Virus genome (UHGV): UHGV-0177056
Length of the DNA stretch: 14,479 nt
Strand: one strand, 5' to 3'
From: a virus
In this document: piece after piece, positions 1-8,492 of the stretch
Layout: each line of letters begins with the position of its first letter
Position numbering within the stretch: position 1 is the stretch's first letter
Translations under genes and position numbers: made by a program
The notes under the pieces: model-generated
Seen by the model: the letters and a program-made list of their open reading frames with translations, nothing else
Databases searched by the model: none
Told to the model about the DNA's origin: nothing

Positions 1-49
1 TGGTTATTGCTGATTAGCTAACAGCACACGCCCCGCCAAAACGAGGCGC

Positions 50-697
50 TTATGCTGATTTCTTGTTTACAGGCTTAGTTTCTTGCTCCGGTGTGACGGG
101 AACGCGATCACCTGGTGTTCCAGCACAGAAAATGGCTTTGGCGCGGCGCAAAATCTCTTTGTCATTTTCCTCATCGCCAGCTAATGCCATGCAAACAGCG
201 TCTTTAAGCGATTGCCTGATGTTCAGGCTTTGAATGGCCTTTCTTTGCTCCTCAAGTTCGCTATCGGCTTGCTTAGTTTGCCTGGTGGGTTGCTGTAGGC
301 GTTCCAAGATTCCTTTAATGCCCATATCGCATATTGCACTTATCAACTGTTCCTTATCTTCTGTGGACGCTCTTTTCAATAACTCGTTAACTAGCTCGTT
401 TGTAATATCGGGAGAAGGCTGCGCTGTTTGATTTGATAGAGAACTTTCTTTGGCGATGGGTTCCTCACCGTAAGCGAGCCAATTTAAGCTCACTTGTTCT
501 TTATCTGAGATAAGGCAAGCTATTTTAAAAGAAGGCTCTGTTCCTTTATGAATGTAGTTGTTTAAGGTTGAAGGGGGGATTCCCCAATCACTCGCAGCAG
601 TTCTGACACTACGGTTACCTATCAGCTTTACTAAACGCTCTCTGAAACTTTCTTTTCCCCGGTCGACAAAAGAAAAAGCATCATCATTTCTAGTCAT
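50..697 (-). CDS. Phage CI-type HTH repressor (occupies the position of the Mu c repressor but with a CI-like N-terminal HTH)
   Basis: 215-aa ORF reading leftward from the operator region. N-terminal segment (SFRERLVKLIGNRSVRTAASDWGIPPSTLNNYIHKGTEP) looks like a phage CI repressor helix-turn-helix. RBS GAGGAAAG about 6 nt upstream of the ATG on the minus strand. Divergent from ner/A/B as in Mu-like phages. Confidence 0.7.
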   Translation of the reverse strand: MTRNDDAFSFVDRGKESFRERLVKLIGNRSVRTAASDWGIPPSTLNNYIHKGTEPSFKIACLISDKEQVSLNWLAYGEEPIAKESSLSNQTAQPSPDITNELVNELLKRASTEDKEQLISAICDMGIKGILERLQQPTRQTKQADSELEEQRKAIQSLNIRQSLKDAVCMALAGDEENDKEILRRAKAIFCAGTPGDRVPVTPEQETKPVNKKSA

Positions 698-879
698 TTT
701 TTCTTTCCTCTATAACTTATTGATTTTAATTACAAAAACCATATAAAGACCAAAAGCAAAAAGAAAATACAAAGAAAGGGCTATTTTTGCTTTACATGAG
801 CTATATATGGATCAATACTTATATCCGAAGGGATAACACGGCGGTGTTATCCGCACGGATAACTTTTAAGGGTAACCTA
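698..879. promoter_or_regulatory. Divergent early regulatory region between repressor and ner (putative operators and promoters)
   Basis: 182-bp AT-rich intergenic region between divergent genes. Contains an A-tract (aaaagcaaaaagaaaatacaaagaaa), a TTTACA -35-like hexamer at 791-796, an IHF-like site ATCAATACTTAT around 811-822, and clustered GGATAAC half-sites at 822-863. Confidence 0.5.
822..863. promoter_or_regulatory. Cluster of GGATAAC inverted and direct half-sites (candidate repressor/Ner operator)
   Basis: Perfect inverted repeat GGATAACAC-GGCG-GTGTTATCC at 831-852, a further GGATAAC at 857-863, and TATCC-GAAG-GGATA at 822-835, all immediately upstream of the ner start. Confidence 0.5.
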
Positions 880-1116
880 ATGATGGTTAGAAATGAAGTA
901 ATGAACAAAGACTGGCACCGCGAGTACATCGTTGCCGCTGTGCACACCAAAGGTTTTACATTGCGTGAACTTTCTGAACGCGCTGGTCTAAAAAAAGACT
1001 CTTTAAAAAATGCACTGTATCGCTCATGCCCTAAATATGAACGCATCATAGCCGATGCTATTGGTGTGGAACCTGCGGAGATCTGGCCAAGCCGGTATGC
1101 CAGTAAGGCGGCGTAA
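880..1116 (+). CDS. ner: Ner-like DNA-binding regulator
   Basis: Translation from ATG 880 (MMVRNEVMNKDWHREYIVAAVHTKGF...EIWPSRYASKAA) matches the Mu Ner / Nlp pattern (DWHR...GLKK...LSNAL...IIA.A....P..IWPSRY). The track ORF starts at 787, but that start would lie across the operator repeats; 880 has an AAGGG RBS-like sequence about 8 nt upstream. Confidence 0.8.
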   Translation: MMVRNEVMNKDWHREYIVAAVHTKGFTLRELSERAGLKKDSLKNALYRSCPKYERIIADAIGVEPAEIWPSRYASKAA

Positions 1117-3158
1117 TGTTTTATTCAGCCAATGAGCTGGCCGGTCTTCCTGGTTTGCCCGGTACAGTTCAGGGGGTGCGCTGGACGCTCAATCGGATCA
1201 CAGAGACGCACCCGGAATGGAAGCGCAAGCGTGAAGGCACCAAAGCATTCGAGTATCACATCGACTGCCTGCCCGCTGAAGCGCAGAAAGTTTTACGTAA
1301 GCGCCTGACCCATCAGGTCCTGGAAGATACGCAACTGCCCGCCGTGGTTGAGCAGAAGGCAGTTAAAAACGTCGCCGTTCGCGATGAACTGGAGGTGATG
1401 GTCAAATGCCCGGAACTGGCATTACGCGAAGTCCAGGCACTGACTGACAAGCAAAAGGCCATCGCTGATGCGCGGATATTGCTGGCTACTGAAGTGCATA
1501 AACTGCGTGAATACGCCGGAATGACAAGGAAGGCCGCGTTAAAGCACATCGTTGATGGTGTGCGCATGGGGGCGTTACCTGACCGCATTATCGAAGCAGC
1601 TAATACTGCAAATGCACGTCAGGGAAAGCGAACCGGTGTCAGCACAGGCAGCCTGGATAGTTGGTACTCCAGCTGGGTGATGGCGCGCGGTGATGCCAAT
1701 CAGTTACTGGCGTTACTGGCTCCCGGTCATCATAAGGGAACACCGTGGGAGCAGGTCTGGTGGTTGAGCGATTTCTTTATGTTCTATCGCTCATGGAAGC
1801 GCCCGACCGTTGAATATGCGTATCGCGAGTTTTCAGCCTGGTGGCATGAAAAACACGCGAACGATGCGGGAATGCTGGCGGCACTGCCTTCAGTTCACGC
1901 AGTAAGACGGGTGTTAAGCAGCGTCCCGGTGATTGTTAAAGAGCGTTTCCGCTCCACAGGTTCAGCCTGGCGTTCGCTCAATCCCTTTGTGCGGCGCGAG
2001 TGGACATCATTACCGGTTAATGCGGTATGGGTCGGGGATGGTCACTGTATGAAAATGACCGCGTTTAACCCCCTGACCGGCAATATTTTCCGGCCAGAAG
2101 TGACGCTGGTTATGGATGCAGGACAACGCTTTATTGTGGGCTGGTCACTGTCCCTGTCGGAGAACGTGATAGCCGTTGCTGATGCGTTACGTTACGGCAT
2201 GGCACAGCACGGGATACCGCTGATTTATTACTCCGATAACGGGGGCGGCGAAAAAAACCTGGTGCTTGATGCCGATATTACCGGGATTCTGCCCCGTCTG
2301 GGTGTGGAACATCACACGGGGATACCAGGTAACCCGCAGGGGCGCGGGGTGATTGAAAGGGTTAACAAGGAAATACCCAAAGACGTGGCCCTGAGTTTCC
2401 AAACGTACTGCGCAAGGGATGCAGACAAGGAAACCGTAATGATGCAGCAACGGATTATGCAGTCAGCCATTAAGGCCACCCACAAAGGGAAAGAGCTGAC
2501 AAAACGGCAGGTTAAGGCGAGGGATGAAATCCCTACCTTTGAGCAACTGATGGCAGCCATAGAGCTGGAGGTCAGACGCTATAACAACCGGCCACACAGC
2601 AGCCTTCCTCGCAAAGAGGATGGCGAGCATTACAGCCCGGCAGCGTATCGCCGGAAACTGATAAAAGAGCAGAATGTTGAAATTGATTTCCTGTCGCCGG
2701 AAGAACTGCATGAAATGTTCAGGCCGGAAGTGACGCGCAAAACATTTCGCGGGGAAATTCAGTTATTCAACAATATTTATTACTCATATGATCTGGCCGC
2801 AGAGCACGGGAATGAAGTCAGGGTCAGTTACGATATTCATGATGCAAACAGCGTCATTGTCCGGCGGGCTGATGGCTCTTATATCTGCGATGCCATCTGG
2901 AACGGTAACAAGGTTGATGCCTTCGCTAAACCAGTTATCGAACAAAAACTGGAGAAACGCGTCAAGGGCCGCATTGCACGGGCCACGCAGAAAATCGAAG
3001 AGGCTAAACGCGAGCTTACCCCGGCCATTACGCAGAAGCCTGACTTTAATCTGGGATATGGACTGGAACGCCTGGAGAAAAAGGAAAAAGAAGAACTTTA
3101 TTTATTCGCATCTGAACGCGAACGCAATTTAAAGAAAAACGGCACAAACAACCGTTAA
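1116..3158 (+). CDS. Mu-type transposase (MuA-like DDE transposase)
   Basis: 680-aa ORF directly after ner with TAATG stop/start overlap. N-terminus (ELAGLPGLPGT..GVRW) resembles the MuA DNA-binding domain; size and position match MuA. Acidic residues in VWVGDGH, YYSDNGG and GVIERVNKE are consistent with a DDE core. Confidence 0.85.
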   Translation: MFYSANELAGLPGLPGTVQGVRWTLNRITETHPEWKRKREGTKAFEYHIDCLPAEAQKVLRKRLTHQVLEDTQLPAVVEQKAVKNVAVRDELEVMVKCPELALREVQALTDKQKAIADARILLATEVHKLREYAGMTRKAALKHIVDGVRMGALPDRIIEAANTANARQGKRTGVSTGSLDSWYSSWVMARGDANQLLALLAPGHHKGTPWEQVWWLSDFFMFYRSWKRPTVEYAYREFSAWWHEKHANDAGMLAALPSVHAVRRVLSSVPVIVKERFRSTGSAWRSLNPFVRREWTSLPVNAVWVGDGHCMKMTAFNPLTGNIFRPEVTLVMDAGQRFIVGWSLSLSENVIAVADALRYGMAQHGIPLIYYSDNGGGEKNLVLDADITGILPRLGVEHHTGIPGNPQGRGVIERVNKEIPKDVALSFQTYCARDADKETVMMQQRIMQSAIKATHKGKELTKRQVKARDEIPTFEQLMAAIELEVRRYNNRPHSSLPRKEDGEHYSPAAYRRKLIKEQNVEIDFLSPEELHEMFRPEVTRKTFRGEIQLFNNIYYSYDLAAEHGNEVRVSYDIHDANSVIVRRADGSYICDAIWNGNKVDAFAKPVIEQKLEKRVKGRIARATQKIEEAKRELTPAITQKPDFNLGYGLERLEKKEKEELYLFASERERNLKKNGTNNR

Positions 3159-3176
3159 TTTAAAAGGTATTTAATT

Positions 3177-4070
3177 ATGAGTTTAATTACGCAATTAAAT
3201 GACGTAATGGCCCGTCGCGGCTATACGCAAACCCACGTCGCCCGTGCTATTGGTCGTAGCAGCGCCGTTATCAACCAGTATTTACAGGGTAAATATCAGG
3301 GCGATATGGCTGATATTGAAGAACGCATTTCTGCCTTTGTGACCCGTGAGCGGGAAAAGGAAAACAGCCGCCGTATTAAAGCGAAATTTGTTGCCACCGG
3401 TATGGCTGCCAAAGGACTGGAGGTGTTGGCCTATGCTCACCTGGAATGTGAAATCTGCGTACTGTATGGCGCGGCAGGTCTTGGCAAAACAATGATTCTG
3501 CGTGAATACGCCGCCAGAAACCGGGATGCGGTCCTGATTGAAGCCGACCCGGGCTATACAGCCAGAACACTGCTTGAGGAGCTGTGCCGCCAGCTGGGGG
3601 TAAAAGTTCGCGGCAATATCCACGAACTGATTGATGCATGTGTGCGAGAACTGCGTGATTCCGGTCGCCTGCTGATGGTGGACGAGGCTGAACTGCTCCC
3701 CTATCGCGCACTGGAGGTTCTGCGCCGTCTGCATGACAAAGCGGGTATCGGGATTGTCCTGGCGGGTATGCCACGCCTTCTGATTAACCTCAAGGGACGT
3801 CGCGGTGAGTTCGCCCAGTTATACAGCCGTGTGGCGCTGGCGCTTAACCTGGGCGATACGCTGTCGCAGGAAGATTTTAACCAGATAGCTACCGGGCTGA
3901 TGCCGGAAGCAGCAGAACCGGAAATCAGCGAGGCGCTCTACGCACGCTCACTGGGTAATGCCCGCCGCCTGTTCAAACTGGCTCGCGGTGTGTACCGGAT
4001 TTGTGATATCAGCGATGCACCGGTCAGTGTGCAGGCCATTGATAAATTCGCAGAAATGTTAATTCACTGA
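3177..4070 (+). CDS. MuB-like transposition ATPase (AAA+ target-DNA activator)
   Basis: 297-aa ORF after the transposase. N-terminal HTH-like segment, Walker A GAAGLGKT, Walker B LLMVDEAE. Position and length match Mu B. Confidence 0.85.
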   Translation: MSLITQLNDVMARRGYTQTHVARAIGRSSAVINQYLQGKYQGDMADIEERISAFVTREREKENSRRIKAKFVATGMAAKGLEVLAYAHLECEICVLYGAAGLGKTMILREYAARNRDAVLIEADPGYTARTLLEELCRQLGVKVRGNIHELIDACVRELRDSGRLLMVDEAELLPYRALEVLRRLHDKAGIGIVLAGMPRLLINLKGRRGEFAQLYSRVALALNLGDTLSQEDFNQIATGLMPEAAEPEISEALYARSLGNARRLFKLARGVYRICDISDAPVSVQAIDKFAEMLIH

Positions 4071-4309
4071 TGGAGAACAAGATGATGGACAAGCAGACCA
4101 TTAACGCCGTCCGTTCCCGTGCCCGTGTGGCCATCCACACCACCGGCGGTCGCGTAACTGGGCAACATCACCGTTTACCTGTGGTTTATGCCTGCCCGCC
4201 CGTGGGCGGCCCTGTATGGCCGGTAACGGAAATCATCCAGACATTCAGCGGCCTGCGCCGCGTGGTGAAAACGTCCTGTATCGACGGCTGCACCGTCGTA
4301 TGGCAATAA
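4070..4309 (+). CDS. Hypothetical small protein (79 aa), early accessory region
   Basis: Only ORF covering this interval; TGATG stop/start overlap with the MuB-like gene. Gly/Pro/Val-rich translation, no recognisable motif. Confidence 0.35.
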   Translation: MENKMMDKQTINAVRSRARVAIHTTGGRVTGQHHRLPVVYACPPVGGPVWPVTEIIQTFSGLRRVVKTSCIDGCTVVWQ

Positions 4310-4321
4310 GAGGAAATCAGA

Positions 4322-4537
4322 ATGGCGGTTAAGTTAGAAGTAATTATCTATACCGATGAAAAAGGCTGTGTTTTAACCCAGACCACGGGGAGTTATTCGA
4401 AGGACGGAGCTTCCGAAAAGGAGTTTCAGGTGGCAACAAGATTACATGATGCTATCAAGGAAACGCTCAGAAATGACTATAACGGCGTGAATCTTTTTTC
4501 TGAAAATGTTGCGCCTCGCGCACATAACACACATTAA
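4322..4537 (+). CDS. Hypothetical small protein (71 aa)
   Basis: Strong RBS AAGAGGAAA 6 nt upstream of the ATG. Same strand and spacing as neighbouring genes. Confidence 0.55.
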   Translation: MAVKLEVIIYTDEKGCVLTQTTGSYSKDGASEKEFQVATRLHDAIKETLRNDYNGVNLFSENVAPRAHNTH

Positions 4538-4566
4538 TCTGTAAATATCACTGAGGTAATTTAATT

Positions 4567-5211
4567 ATGACGACTGAAAATAAAGTTAAGCAATATACAA
4601 AAAATAAAGTGCAGGAAGGCTACTGGGTTGATGCCCGTGGTGTGATGACGCCTGAAAGTCTTATCAAAGATATTGACCGCGACCGTGAGCAGCTGGTCGG
4701 TGAGCTTGTGGAGATGGTGATTGCTGCCTCTGCCTCACTGCGTGAACTGAAACTGCGTGCGTTTGGTGATATTCAGGCATTTATTGACCTGTCGGCGGAG
4801 AAATACGGCGCTGTGAAAGGCGGTAAAAAAGGGAATATCACACTTTACAGCTTTGACGGGCGTTACAAGATTCAGCGCGCCATGCAGGACCGTATCGCGC
4901 TTGATGAACGCATTCAGACCGCGAAGGCACTGATTGATGACTGTCTGGCTGACTGGACGGAAGGAGCGCGCCCTGAAATTAAAGCCATCATCAGTGAAGC
5001 ATTCAGCACGGACAAGGAAGGCAACATTAACACCGGGCGCGTTCTGGCTCTGCGTCGTCTCGATATTACGGAGGAACGCTGGGATAACGCCATGAAACTG
5101 ATTGGTGAAGCCGTCCAGGTAATTGGCAGCAAAAGCTATATCCGCGTGTATGAGCGCGTCGGTGATTCTGCTGAATACCGCGCAATCCCGCTTGATATTG
5201 CAGGGGTTTAA
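4567..5211 (+). CDS. DUF3164-like protein typical of Mu-like phage accessory regions
   Basis: 214-aa ORF with GAGGT RBS. Size and position in a Mu-like early region fit the DUF3164 family; the family assignment is from memory, not a search. Confidence 0.6.
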   Translation: MTTENKVKQYTKNKVQEGYWVDARGVMTPESLIKDIDRDREQLVGELVEMVIAASASLRELKLRAFGDIQAFIDLSAEKYGAVKGGKKGNITLYSFDGRYKIQRAMQDRIALDERIQTAKALIDDCLADWTEGARPEIKAIISEAFSTDKEGNINTGRVLALRRLDITEERWDNAMKLIGEAVQVIGSKSYIRVYERVGDSAEYRAIPLDIAGV

Positions 5212-5212
5212 C

Positions 5213-5446
5213 ATGCATCAGGATATCAAAGAGTACAGGGCCGGGAACCGTTGCGCAGCGTATTCGCTGGGCGCGTCCAGAGCAGAACAACGCGGCGATT
5301 ATGCCGAAGCTGAAAAACTGTGGCGTAAGGCAGCACAAAGCCCGTGTAGTACCCTGCGCCGCATCTGGGCGGAACACCGGGCAGAGTTCTGTGCCAATGC
5401 TCACCTGAAAAGATGGAAGCCGCCTCATGAACGCGAAACGCTTTAA
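5213..5446 (+). CDS. Small ANR-like regulator (78 aa)
   Basis: ATG at 5213 lies 2 nt after the upstream stop (5209-5211), so it is preferred over the track start at 5123, which would overlap the previous gene by 89 nt. Translation (RAEQRGDYAEAEKLWRKAA...RAEFCA) resembles ANR-family small regulators. Confidence 0.5.
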   Translation: MHQDIKEYRAGNRCAAYSLGASRAEQRGDYAEAEKLWRKAAQSPCSTLRRIWAEHRAEFCANAHLKRWKPPHERETL

Positions 5447-5618
5447 TCAGCTATATCCGCCAGGGACTCGCTTCATGCACATTGCACATCGGGCAGTGCG
5501 TGGTGGTCGGGTGGTAAAAACTGTTGCACCTGCCAGAGATTTTAAATGTGGTTGTGTGGTTGAAATTAATGTCGAGCCTTATTTCGTTAAAGTCGAAACA
5601 CTGAAAGCACCGCATTAA
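5427..5618 (+). CDS. Hypothetical small basic protein (63 aa)
   Basis: Start overlaps the end of the previous gene, same strand; no recognisable domain. Confidence 0.4.
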   Translation: MNAKRFNQLYPPGTRFMHIAHRAVRGGRVVKTVAPARDFKCGCVVEINVEPYFVKVETLKAPH

Positions 5619-5647
5619 TTTAATTTGTTTTTAATTGTTATTTAAAA

Positions 5648-5681
5648 CAGGCGTAAACCCGCAGGGGCTGGCTTACGCCTG
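5648..5681 (-). terminator. Putative intrinsic terminator between convergent genes
   Basis: Perfect 9-bp stem CAGGCGTAA (5648-5656) / TTACGCCTG (5673-5681) with a GC-rich loop. On the minus-strand transcript the hairpin is followed by UUUUAAAU, so it would terminate the 5759-5977 gene; it may also act on plus-strand read-through. Confidence 0.5.
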
Positions 5682-5758
5682 AATCTGAGGAAGTTTATTT
5701 ATGAATATTGCTAAGCAAAAAAAATTCGCCCGCGAAATTAATCTGACAATCGTTTGTT

Positions 5759-5977
5759 TTAATCGTCTTGCGACCAGTTCTCAATCGACAGCAGATGTTC
5801 ATCCAGCGCCGCAGCCAGAACGAACTCCCCACGTTCCTGAAGGCCGTGCTGGAAGTTGCGTAATTCAGAATCCAGGGCGCTGAGGTTCAGACAGCCATTT
5901 TCTGAAAGCTGTTTAACCAGAAAGCTCCACGCAGCTTTGTTAGCAGTAATTGCTGCCGCAATTTCATCATCAATCAT
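5759..5977 (-). CDS. Reverse-oriented small acidic protein (72 aa), function unknown
   Basis: Minus-strand ORF with strong RBS (AGGAG, 6-nt spacer) and the downstream hairpin terminator. About 14 acidic versus about 5 basic residues. Only the repressor shares this orientation in the window. Confidence 0.55.
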   Translation of the reverse strand: MIDDEIAAAITANKAAWSFLVKQLSENGCLNLSALDSELRNFQHGLQERGEFVLAAALDEHLLSIENWSQDD

Positions 5978-6065
5978 TTTTTAACTCCTGATTGGGTATG
6001 TTGGGGCAGCGATTATGACAAGTGTTTTGTGGTTATAAGTTGATCAAAAACAATGAGTTACAACC
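5978..6065. promoter_or_regulatory. Divergent intergenic region (candidate promoters for the 5759-5977 gene and the 6066 operon)
   Basis: 88-bp non-coding gap between divergently oriented ORFs; no consensus promoter hexamers could be assigned by eye. Confidence 0.3.
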
Positions 6066-6776
6066 ATGAAAGATAAATACATTGCCAAAATCAAAAAACT
6101 GTTACGCCTTGCCAGAGGAACATCAAGCCCGGAAGAAGCCGCTAACGCTATTGCAAAAGCCCAGGCTTATATGCGCCAGCATGGTATCAGCGAAAACGAC
6201 GCGGAATTGTTCGACATTCAGGAAGCTGCCAGCGCGGGTGCGCCGAGTGACGCCAGTACGCCGCCGCGTTATATGCACATCCTGTGTGACCTGGTCTGTA
6301 AAGCCTTCGGTGTCGAGTGTTACATCTCCGGCGAATACCGGGCTTCTGGTTCACTCAAACGTTACGTGCGTTTTTATGGTCCTGACAGCCGCCCGGAAAT
6401 CGCGGCTTACGCGTTTGATGTGCTTTCCCGTCAGATGATGGCAGAGCGCAAGAAATATCAGGATAAACACTGCAAACGTTGTGGTCCGTCCACGCGGGTA
6501 GCCCGTGGCGACCAGTTCTGCGAAGGCTGGGTCTTTGGTGCCCGTGATGTCATTGCGGTGTATGACGTCTCCCCGGAAGAAAAAAGCCGCCTTGAGCTTT
6601 ACAGAAAGAACCTGCACAGCACTAAGGGACTGCGCGACGGGGATATGCGCACAGCTAAAGCGTGTCGGGGTGCAGAGTTTGCCGCTACTGCCGGTTTTAT
6701 CGCCGGGAAGAACGCCAGGCTGCATCAGGGGGTTAATGGTCAGAGCAACAGACCGCTGGCACTGGGGAGGGTGTAA
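6066..6776 (+). CDS. DUF2786-like phage protein
   Basis: N-terminus KIKKLLRLARGTSSPEEAANAIAKAQAYMRQHGI matches the DUF2786 signature (KI.KLLALA..T.NE.EA..A..KAQELM..H) common in prophages. 236 aa. Confidence 0.7.
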   Translation: MKDKYIAKIKKLLRLARGTSSPEEAANAIAKAQAYMRQHGISENDAELFDIQEAASAGAPSDASTPPRYMHILCDLVCKAFGVECYISGEYRASGSLKRYVRFYGPDSRPEIAAYAFDVLSRQMMAERKKYQDKHCKRCGPSTRVARGDQFCEGWVFGARDVIAVYDVSPEEKSRLELYRKNLHSTKGLRDGDMRTAKACRGAEFAATAGFIAGKNARLHQGVNGQSNRPLALGRV

Positions 6777-6778
6777 CG

Positions 6779-7006
6779 ATGGCTTTTAAACTTCTTAGTG
6801 TTACCGAAGCAATATACCAGCCGCCCGGAGAACGCCACGAATACAGGATGAATGACGGTAGCGCGGTGGTTGAGTTCCCCGGATATCCGGGGGCTTCCCG
6901 GTGGCGGTTCTATGACAGTGTGGGACGTCGGATTATTAAAAGAACCGTGCACAACAATATGAAGGCTGCCGTAGAACGTCATAAGAGAAGGTTTAACTGC
7001 AAATGA
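6779..7006 (+). CDS. Hypothetical protein (75 aa)
   Basis: GGAGGG RBS 8 nt upstream; start 2 nt after the upstream stop (translational coupling). Confidence 0.55.
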   Translation: MAFKLLSVTEAIYQPPGERHEYRMNDGSAVVEFPGYPGASRWRFYDSVGRRIIKRTVHNNMKAAVERHKRRFNCK

Positions 7007-7233
7007 AAATTGAATTTTATGACCATGGGGTCACCGCAACTATCACTATTTCTTGTTGGTTCTGGGAGTTCCACCGTTACTTCAGAGTTGTAGATGCTGC
7101 GCTGTTTGTTGCACCGGGAGCGTTACATCACAGTGGAATCGGTATTGTTATGAACACTGTCATCAGCGGTAAAACGGTCCCGATGTTGCGGGCGTTTAAA
7201 GTGGCAAAACAGGAGGCTGGCAATGGTCATTGA
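7003..7233 (+). CDS. Hypothetical protein (76 aa)
   Basis: ATGA start/stop overlap with the upstream gene; hydrophobic stretches; weak RBS. Confidence 0.4.
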   Translation: MKIEFYDHGVTATITISCWFWEFHRYFRVVDAALFVAPGALHHSGIGIVMNTVISGKTVPMLRAFKVAKQEAGNGH

Positions 7234-7537
7234 TAAAACGATAACGATAGATGTAGCCATGAATACAGGTCTGGCGCTTATCGGTTATGGCTATATCACT
7301 TTTATGTCATTCAGGTGGTTGATTTCTTCGCTCTTTAAGCAGCGTGAAAAACATCGTTGTAAAGACAAGCGCGCGAAGGCGCTAAATGCGTTTAATGACG
7401 CTTTTGATATTGACCATATGCAACAGGGCGACCCCGCACGCGTAATTACCCGGGGAGATATCGTAATTCTTGTGTACCGGAATGAAAAAAATGAACAGGA
7501 GACAACCAGTGAGTCAGCAAACCAGAATAAGCGATAA
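7223..7537 (+). CDS. Hypothetical single-pass membrane protein (104 aa)
   Basis: Strong AGGAGG RBS 6 nt upstream. Hydrophobic segment GLALIGYGYITFMSFRWLISSLF followed by a basic stretch (KQREKHRCKDKRAK), suggesting N-out/C-in topology. Confidence 0.6.
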   Translation: MVIDKTITIDVAMNTGLALIGYGYITFMSFRWLISSLFKQREKHRCKDKRAKALNAFNDAFDIDHMQQGDPARVITRGDIVILVYRNEKNEQETTSESANQNKR

Positions 7538-7673
7538 GAGTCTGACCAGACTGATTGCCGATGCGGACAAGGTGCTGGAGCGGAACTCCCCCGTTGCCGA
7601 TGAGGAATGGTGGCAGGATTTCCGGGCTGCAATGCTGGAACTTCAGGAACGTCGTCGGGAGGTGTTGAAGTGA
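7509..7673 (+). CDS. Hypothetical small protein (54 aa, GTG start)
   Basis: GTG at 7509 preceded by GGAG with a 7-nt spacer. The track ORF begins at TTG 7470, but the RBS supports 7509. Overlaps the upstream gene by 29 nt. Confidence 0.45.
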   Translation: MSQQTRISDKSLTRLIADADKVLERNSPVADEEWWQDFRAAMLELQERRREVLK

Positions 7674-7939
7674 GTGAATTAAAGTGTCGAATTAATGGCA
7701 ATCAGATAGAACCGTGTGCGGTACTGGCAAAAGCACTCGAATATGGAAATCCAGCCTTTAAGAGTAAAGGCATATTTATCCCGGAACGCGTGAATATAAA
7801 CACCGGCGAGCCAGGCTTAGACATTGCTCAAATTCACTCCGGCCAATATGTCGGTCGTGGTGTTGCCATGTGTTTTTGCCCGTTCTGTGGTGAAAGTCTG
7901 AAAACATGGAAAAAGGAGGCAACCAGTGAGCGAGATTAA
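7670..7939 (+). CDS. Small Cys-containing protein, possible zinc ribbon (89 aa, GTG start)
   Basis: GTG at 7670 overlaps the upstream stop (GTGA) with GGGAGG upstream. Cys at residues 6 and 16 plus a C-terminal CFCPFC cluster. The track ORF starts at 7607, but that stretch is Gly/Ser-rich and overlaps the upstream gene. Confidence 0.5.
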   Translation: MSELKCRINGNQIEPCAVLAKALEYGNPAFKSKGIFIPERVNINTGEPGLDIAQIHSGQYVGRGVAMCFCPFCGESLKTWKKEATSERD

Positions 7940-8492
7940 CTATCAGGCACTGCGTGAGGTGGCAGAGGCCGCGAAGGGGGATACGACGTGGCAGAACCTA
8001 CAGGCTTTTCATGCTGCGGCTACGCCGGAGGTTGTGCAGGCGTTGCTGGATGAAAACGAAAGACTGTGTCGCGATCTGATAGCTCGTAATGGTGAGATTG
8101 AAGGGCTTCGGGAGTGGGCAGAAGAACTGGAGGCACGGGAGGTGGCTTTGCCAGTAGCGTCATGCATTGTTGAAGATGGATGCATGTGTGTTGATGGGTT
8201 CAGTGAGTATGTAGGTCACTCGCTATCTGATGGAATGCATGAGCTTTATGCTGCCCCGCCAGCGTCGGTAGTGCCGGAAGGACTAGTTAAAGCAGTGCGT
8301 TTCTATGAACAGGTATCGCTACACAGACCGGCGAACTGTCCGATGGTCTGGTTTTTAACGGCACCATTCATAAAAACTTTGAGCTGCGTCTGCCGGTCAT
8401 GCGTGATAACGGGCAGGCACTGGAAGAAACTGAAGAACGCTTTCAGACAGTGGACGGCTTCGCGGCGGATTATTACTACCGCTGTGCGGTAA
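7926..8492 (+). CDS. ead/Ea22-like protein, N-terminal region; C-terminal ~60 codons of the ORF are of doubtful coding nature
   Basis: GTG start with GGAGG RBS. N-terminus MSEINYQALREVAEAAKGDTTW resembles the lambdoid Ea22/ead family start (..QALREAAEKAT.GEW). After about 8300 the translation turns Cys/Arg-rich and non-protein-like, while the chaperone-like frame opens. Confidence 0.5.
   Translation: MSEINYQALREVAEAAKGDTTWQNLQAFHAAATPEVVQALLDENERLCRDLIARNGEIEGLREWAEELEAREVALPVASCIVEDGCMCVDGFSEYVGHSLSDGMHELYAAPPASVVPEGLVKAVRFYEQVSLHRPANCPMVWFLTAPFIKTLSCVCRSCVITGRHWKKLKNAFRQWTASRRIITTAVR

Follow-up and report, generated by a model that had tools for sequence, protein, structure and literature searches.

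A small reverse-oriented gene for an acidic three-helix protein in the early accessory region of a Mu-like prophage

Morons of the Hendrix type are independently transcribed accessory genes within phage operons, lambda bor/lom, rexAB and sieB being familiar examples. Two further groups of small proteins are of interest for comparison: the small acidic phage inhibitors and DNA mimics, such as Ocr, Arn, T7 gp5.9 and SPO1 Gp46, and the orphan immunity proteins of polymorphic toxin and bacteriocin systems, for example those of the Im7/Im9 type. Among infection-time counter-defence genes, an orientation reverse to the early operon is unusual.

Here we analyze a small gene that can be set beside each of these groups. 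It is located in the virus genome UHGV-0177056, a stretch of 14,479 nucleotides which we call the window. The window is a Mu-like prophage with a CI-type repressor gene at 50-697 on the minus strand. The rightward genes are a Ner-like HTH gene, the genes of a MuA-type transposase (1116-3158) and a MuB-type AAA+ protein (3177-4070), DUF3164, an ANR-family small regulator, DUF2786/DUF7168, DUF4752 and an Ea22-like gene, followed by tail and baseplate genes. All other credible genes between 787 and 14429 lie on the plus strand, and the minus strand carries the small gene and the repressor only. Over positions 5400-6400, the identity to the prophage of EPEC E2348/69, which is inserted in eutC, is 99.7%.

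Collinearity with the E2348/69 prophage ends at 8314, and the window resumes about 16.6 kb farther along, within the tape-measure gene; thus the window lacks gemA, mor, and the genes for lysis and for the head. A search of 5,426 complete E. coli genomes for the 8314/8315 junction found no copy, so it marks either a defective derivative that arose by deletion or a join made in assembly. Upstream of the small gene, the window encodes on the plus strand (5213-5446) a 77-aa protein of the ANR family (AraC negative regulator, Aar-like; NCBIfam NF033650, E 1.3e-15; PHROG 2227), whose gene overlaps the next ORF of 63 aa (5427-5618, PHROG 5591) by 20 nt. Homology of the small acidic protein to this ANR regulator was considered and rejected (hhalign probability 0.3%).

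The features around the small gene are as follows, in window coordinates:

5620-5703: a copy of the junction module described below
5644-5681, minus strand: hairpin (arms 5648-5662 and 5667-5681, then UUUU), a plausible 3' end for the transcript of the small gene
5701-5883, plus strand: antisense ORF of 60 codons with a Shine-Dalgarno (SD) sequence GAGGAAG at 5687-5693, called as a CDS by PGAP in relatives that carry a deletion
5759-5977, minus strand: CDS of the small acidic three-helix protein, 72 codons plus stop (translation, homologues, pN/pS, AlphaFold2)
5893-6059: segment of 167 bp missing from most E. coli relatives, flanked by the imperfect direct repeats GAGGTTCAGACAGCCAT and GAGTTACAACCAT
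5978-6065: divergent intergenic region of 88 bp, AT-rich (GC 0.36), from the small gene to the DUF2786 gene
5985-5989, minus strand: SD sequence AGGAG, 7 nt 5' of the ATG, read from the sequence
6012-6020, minus strand: candidate extended -10 element TGTCATAAT of a putative own promoter, from an xATAAT-like hexamer aligned across six loci
6040-6047: conserved motif TTGATCAA, which holds a GATC (Dam) site, yGATCA being invariant in six diverged loci
6066-6776, plus strand: DUF2786/DUF7168 protein gene (PHROG 421), the divergent neighbour and conserved synteny partner of the small gene

The minus-strand ORF 5759-5977 is translated as MIDDEIAAAITANKAAWSFLVKQLSENGCLNLSALDSELRNFQHGLQERGEFVLAAALDEHLLSIENWSQDD. 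With 13 D+E and 4 K+R the protein has a net charge of -9 and a pI of 4.28; the preliminary description of this DNA, which spoke of a 72-aa protein with a charge of about -9 encoded against the surrounding operons, is borne out. The protein is identical to RefSeq WP_000564495.1 (UniProt B7UGF1_ECO27), is annotated as hypothetical in E2348/69 under that accession and in STEC316, and its exact sequence is present on 598 contigs. AlphaFold2 (AF2), run with a six-sequence alignment, predicts a three-helix bundle with pLDDT 88.7 and pTM 0.72. Helix 1 of the family has the invariant motif AAAIxANKxAW..L...L, in which the invariant residues I10, N13, W17, L20 and L24 form an a/d heptad face with alanines on its flanks. 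This face may serve for packing or oligomerisation. The protein is soluble and carries no catalytic or DNA-binding signature.

Homologues were sought first by an exhaustive HMMER search over 1.8 billion representatives and then with a profile. The result was a small and rare family restricted to Enterobacterales, with about 18 clusters at 90% identity. Its full-length members have 72-77 aa, are 31-64% identical to the small protein, and come from Salmonella enterica, Serratia fonticola, S. odorifera, Trabulsiella and metagenomes. All members are acidic, with net charges from -2 to -9. The preliminary description could not place the sequence in any family, and this holds for the curated ones, as the small protein has no profile-HMM match in Pfam-A, PHROGs v4, NCBIfam 20 or PADLOC-DB 2; however, the protein is no singleton. 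The other family members gave scattered matches in these libraries, all with E > 0.01. A profile search of PDB sequences returned no meaningful match, and structure searches with the model returned generic helical bundles only. Thus the profile searches and structure prediction which had been recommended pointed to no housekeeping or structural family. The family is rare in IMG/VR and metagenomes, and it is absent from 50,697 sequenced phage genomes (tblastn, with a near-identity DNA search also empty), from 72,556 plasmids (tblastn) and from the GTDB species-representative genomes. Our literature search on DUF2786, WP_000564495, B7UGF1 and morons of Mu-like early regions found nothing relevant.

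The homologues are found in two kinds of surroundings. Mu-like loci carry them in Salmonella (L019, L020), in S. fonticola (L021) and in three metagenomic or SRA prophages (L025, L026, L027/L032). In all the Mu-like loci examined, which represent four lineages, the gene has the same place and orientation: antisense to the early operon, immediately upstream of the DUF2786/DUF7168 gene and divergent from it. The second subgroup, of the S. odorifera type, lies outside prophages as a stand-alone gene between IS remnants and downstream of large proteins, and its members are the least acidic (-2 to -4). In this subgroup about 300 bp separate the gene from the very large proteins upstream, and one of these has a weak YopT-like Peptidase_C58 match. 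These large proteins are mutually non-homologous, so a conserved upstream partner was rejected, and no conserved neighbour of the stand-alone copies was found. A 77-aa neighbour in Serratia odorifera was likewise rejected as a homologue, and P0012 (844 aa, tandem repeats) was treated as a chance match.

Two observations in the related loci deserve a separate mention. In L025, whose prophage carries a family member, genes for an Hcp (T6SS_HCP) protein and a Tlde1-domain protein (1325-2183) adjoin the lysis genes, and they resemble effector cargo of a type VI secretion system borne by a transposable prophage. In both L025 and L026 there is an uncalled ORF of about 55-60 aa with two Cys pairs (CPCCEH...CHFCN) on the early-operon strand at about 5740-5925. 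It lies between DUF2786 and the reverse gene, so that the true divergent intergenic region in these loci is about 85-90 bp.

The small gene overlaps a plus-strand ORF, and we can ask: Which of the two strands codes? ORF length alone is within chance, because many antisense ORFs of 60-220 aa occur elsewhere in the window; the homologues, the codon-position pattern and the synteny place the small ORF above it. In the minus frame pN/pS was 0.14-0.71 in 28/28 pairs, and in the plus frame over the overlap it was 1.16-3.14, again in 28/28 pairs. Codon alignments of 21 pairs in the minus frame had the third position as the most variable and the second as the least variable in every pair, and the full order (third > first > second) in nearly all of them. 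When synonymous codons were resampled, the open length of the plus frame was as expected from the minus protein (P = 0.18-0.78). The AF2 model of the plus product is a single N-terminal helix with a disordered tail that coincides with the overlap, and one locus, L022, has a minus-frame homologue without any plus ORF. Homologues, codon positions, pN/pS, resampling and predicted structure thus identify the minus ORF as the gene. That 5759-5977 (minus strand) is a real, selected, reverse-oriented and dispensable gene is close to certain, and on the sequence evidence the body of the plus ORF is a by-product of it.

The preliminary description had named expression of the plus ORF 5701-5883 as what would overturn its reading; as a real gene this ORF fails on codon positions, pN/pS and resampling. 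That it is the sole real gene, with the minus ORF spurious, is hardly credible. PGAP annotates the plus ORF in L002-L004 and a good SD precedes it, but in these relatives the 167-bp deletion has removed the 5' end of the minus gene. Across genera, the purifying signal lies in the minus frame and the opposite signal in the plus frame, L022 has the one frame and lacks the other, and AF2 folds the minus product confidently and the plus product mostly not. Substitutions in the E. coli short forms lean to plus-frame third positions (12/23, not significant), but variation within E. coli cannot decide the frame, since it is sparse and dominated by pseudogene copies. It is also very unlikely, though less so, that both strands code, the plus ORF being translated from the early transcript and its helix (MNI...REIxxTI..RL) being a functional micro-protein. 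This would agree with the six Mu-like loci, every one of which has the SD, the ATG and a frame open over 60-81 codons, but the SD and ATG of the plus ORF belong to the generic junction module that stands before every plus-strand cassette, and the open frame itself is expected by chance given the minus protein. The first 18 plus codons lie outside the overlap and vary in the order third >= first > second, with pN/pS mostly 0.5-0.7; within E. coli, four of the five substitutions there are synonymous third-position changes, and AF2 gives a confident helix for residues 3-26. Against this, the signal in these codons is barely unlike that of other frames, pN/pS in the overlap exceeds 1 in every pair, the tail of the product is predicted to be disordered, and the product has no PHROG or Pfam match.

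The helix just mentioned falls within residues ~1-26 of the plus ORF (MNIAKQKKFAREINLTIVCFNRLATS, 5701-5778, plus strand), and a pattern related to this start, MN/K..S.....RE(I/V)..TI..(Y/F).RL, occurs in Salmonella, Serratia and metagenomic loci. A relationship of this N-terminus to that of DUF2786 was rejected as a superficial resemblance. The assembly L006 (GCA_036681295.1, contig JAQMUV010000003.1) is broken by frameshifts along the whole region, and both DUF3164 and DUF2786 are split in it; on this account an apparent plus-ORF homologue in it with 60% identity (P0009) was discarded.

The signals in front of the small gene are conserved along with it. The strong ribosome-binding site and the own divergent intergenic region of the preliminary description are both present, as AGGAG and the 88-bp region listed above, and an SD-like run precedes the ATG in each of eight diverged loci whose upstream sequences were read by eye. 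An xATAAT hexamer lies about 30 nt 5' of the ATG in six aligned Mu-like loci, and TGnCATAAT is the same in E. coli and Salmonella. About 25 nt farther upstream than this hexamer stands yGATCA, at a constant aligned position in the six Mu-like loci; L025 and L026 have a second GATC close by in the divergent intergenic region. With its GATC, TTGATCAA could be a methylation-sensitive site or one bound by a regulator. It occurs a single time in the whole window, and for this reason we rejected it as a repeated element of the left-end repressor/ner control region. Simple consensus scans for sigma-70 promoters and for terminators called none around the small gene.

Beyond the stop codon of the small gene, at a distance of 77 nt, lies an inverted repeat with 15-nt arms. 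As minus-strand RNA it forms a hairpin of -24 kcal/mol (z -5.3) with UUUU directly after it; the U-run is not conserved in other genera. In an Rfam search of 5300-6300 the only match was a sub-threshold one to Lnt over the hairpin (26.9 bits vs a gathering score of 55). The hairpin belongs to a module composed of an AT-rich stretch, the hairpin itself with its 15-bp arms (GGCGTAAACC..GGCTTACGCC), CTGAAT, an SD sequence and ATG. In related prophages this junction module stands ahead of every rightward accessory cassette, and in some it starts DUF2786 directly. Besides the copy in the window, copies were located as follows:

L003: 881-965 and 1501-1580
L004: 1501-1564 and 2132-2210
L005: 419-486 and about 895-950
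L042: 1201-1282
L043: 1201-1285 and about 1815-1895

One copy has another hairpin sequence with the layout unchanged, and on the plus strand the module has no T-run. Because the same element recurs between the cassettes of related prophages, the hairpin is a generic cassette-junction element and not a dedicated terminator of the small gene. The downstream hairpin terminator of the preliminary description therefore stands as a stable minus-strand hairpin followed by UUUU, but not as a terminator of the gene's own, being a shared element with a negative terminator scan. The module may mark a boundary at which recombination exchanges cassettes, or it may act in mRNA processing or stability. Its description as a recurring unit is a by-product of this analysis.

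In most E. coli relatives the small gene is damaged. The 167-bp deletion takes out its first 28 codons, the SD, the promoter region and the GATC motif, and joins the 3' remnant to the start of DUF2786, bringing GAGG nearer that start. The identical deletion was found in L002-L004, L007, L008 and L010-L018. Of the 59 E. coli genomes with the region, 8 have the intact long form, the rest having either the 167-bp deletion or no gene. In IMG/VR, the sequence upstream of close DUF2786 homologues contained the intact gene once, the deletion remnant about 13 times, and otherwise other rightward cassettes or nothing; distant DUF2786 loci there have no divergent partner. DUF2786 is annotated at full length in E. 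coli relatives without an intact small gene. The small gene is dispensable, and its frequent loss in E. coli means that its benefit, if any, is conditional or weak.

The deletion has a consequence for annotation. In the relatives that carry it, PGAP calls the antisense ORF of 60 aa and, in some cases, a spurious minus-strand ORF of 64 aa (P0003). The plus ORF is called because the 5' end of the minus gene is gone, which leaves the caller with no alternative. The plus-strand protein annotated in most E. coli genomes should be corrected accordingly: it is the antisense of a deletion remnant, without coding selection in the overlap.

How does the gene compare with the known systems? Like morons, it is a small unit, complete in itself, which has an SD and promoter-like signals of its own and a hairpin after it, and it is set between genes that form a long operon; at this position some close relatives have it and others do not, and its orientation permits expression while the lytic operon is repressed. 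Unlike morons, it has the same composition as its surroundings (GC 0.493 vs 0.499 in window positions 1-8314; GC3 0.51 vs 0.52-0.57 in the neighbours), so that a compositional sign of recent acquisition is absent. Its promoter and terminator are candidates, with a negative consensus scan, and the hairpin is shared junction sequence. In contrast to morons of recent insertion, its position is conserved across genera, which marks it as an old resident. The moron-like character proposed in the preliminary description for this Mu-like early accessory region is thus retained as regards layout and the presence/absence pattern, but not as regards base composition (GC 0.49 vs 0.50). The gene is best filed as an uncharacterised prophage accessory (moron) gene.

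With Ocr, Arn, gp5.9 and Gp46 the protein shares small size, strong acidity (net -9, pI 4.3), helical structure and a lack of enzymatic motifs. Unlike them, it has no detected similarity to this set in sequence or structure, part of its family is weakly acidic, its gene is not oriented with the early operon, and sequenced phages contain no homologue. As regards DNA mimicry, net charge varies from -9 to -2 across the family and no significant structural match was found. Like the Im7/Im9-type immunity proteins, it is small, acidic, all-helical and cytoplasmic, and is encoded by a stand-alone gene with its own (candidate) promoter on mobile DNA; the subgroup situated about 300 bp downstream of very large proteins adds to this likeness. 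In contrast to such orphans, the large upstream proteins are not homologous to one another and the prophage loci have no toxin partner. Pfam immunity families gave no match, and the Foldseek match to 4nsr_D ('immunity protein') is insignificant (E 5.2). The arrangement of genes also differs from that of anti-CRISPR or anti-defence loci, the neighbours being DUF2786/DUF7168 and the 63-aa PHROG_5591 protein with no Aca-type HTH, and from that of type II antitoxins, as the small gene is monocistronic and divergent from DUF2786, which persists intact alone.

If the gene is selected and yet so often lost, then what might it do? The repressor apart, it alone is oriented away from the early promoter, and its signals are independent; a moron expressed in the lysogen is therefore the most economical reading. 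The moron-type unit would be transcribed from its own weak-consensus promoter, with the -10-like element and the GATC motif, and the transcript would end at the junction hairpin. Such a promoter and such an end suggest expression in the lysogen, where the small gene, like the repressor, would be active while the early promoter is repressed. The protein would most likely act stoichiometrically, by binding to another protein, from the host or from an invader, and so blocking or modulating it, and the gain would be a conditional benefit to the carrier cell (exclusion, immunity or host modulation) and not to the phage lytic programme. Its frequent loss beside an intact DUF2786 is hard to square with an obligatory partnership, with an antitoxin function or with an essential part in phage development, and the copies that stand alone outside prophages point to a gain for the carrying cell that is independent of the phage. 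Together with the lysogen reading, this pattern favours a protein that stoichiometrically binds or inhibits a target protein from the host or an invader. As a package (selected gene and moron, own promoter, expression in the lysogen, stoichiometric binding and conditional benefit to the carrier) this is our best explanation, held tentatively and at somewhat less than an even chance. We count against it the negative consensus scan, the unconserved U-run, the frequent loss in E. coli and the weak acidity (-2 to -4) of the non-prophage subgroup.

Two other roles must be weighed against the lysogen-expressed moron. The preliminary description named anti-defence along with host modulation; an anti-defence gene would encode a small acidic inhibitor or DNA mimic, made from its own host-recognised promoter right after DNA entry, that blocks a component of restriction, CRISPR or abortive infection. 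The protein is indeed small, acidic and helical, its gene lies in the variable accessory region of a transposable phage with promoter-like signals separate from the early promoter, and it comes and goes among relatives in the way typical of arms-race genes. We nevertheless regard this role as unlikely: the gene runs opposite to the early operon, no Aca-like HTH regulator adjoins it, copies exist among IS remnants outside any phage, the members of that subgroup have net charges of only -2 to -4, no structural similarity to solved DNA mimics or inhibitors was found, and the 50,697 sequenced phage genomes contain 0 homologues. The reverse orientation and stand-alone copies fit lysogen expression better. 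The other role, a regulator of phage development, seems distinctly unlikely. Here, convergent transcription would damp or time early read-through into DUF2786, gemA and mor, or the protein would modulate DUF2786, the repressor or another phage protein, possibly with a coupling to replication via the conserved GATC site. The position and orientation fixed just upstream of DUF2786 in four diverged Mu-like lineages, the invariant GATC motif in the shared intergenic region, and the fact that the small-gene transcript would be antisense to the early mRNA over 5681-6005 all agree with it. However, the protein itself is under purifying selection, which makes an RNA-only role insufficient; in most E. 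coli relatives the gene is gone together with its promoter, yet DUF2786 is intact and the rest of the region is kept, distant DUF2786 loci do without a divergent partner, and stand-alone copies occur outside prophages.

We consider it quite doubtful that the lysogen-expressed moron belongs to a wider scheme, namely a new family, confined to enterobacterial Mu-like prophages, of protective or counter-defence three-helix inhibitors made in the lysogen from a Dam-gated GATC promoter that would switch with replicative transposition, perhaps as one half of a sense/antisense coding pair with the N-terminal helix of the plus ORF. If the role in our best explanation is true, a compact family (~75 aa) with a conserved helix would join the prophage proteins that alter the biology of the host or its competitors, and its source would be a little-explored accessory region of the Mu-like prophages found in pathogenic E. 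coli, Salmonella and Serratia.
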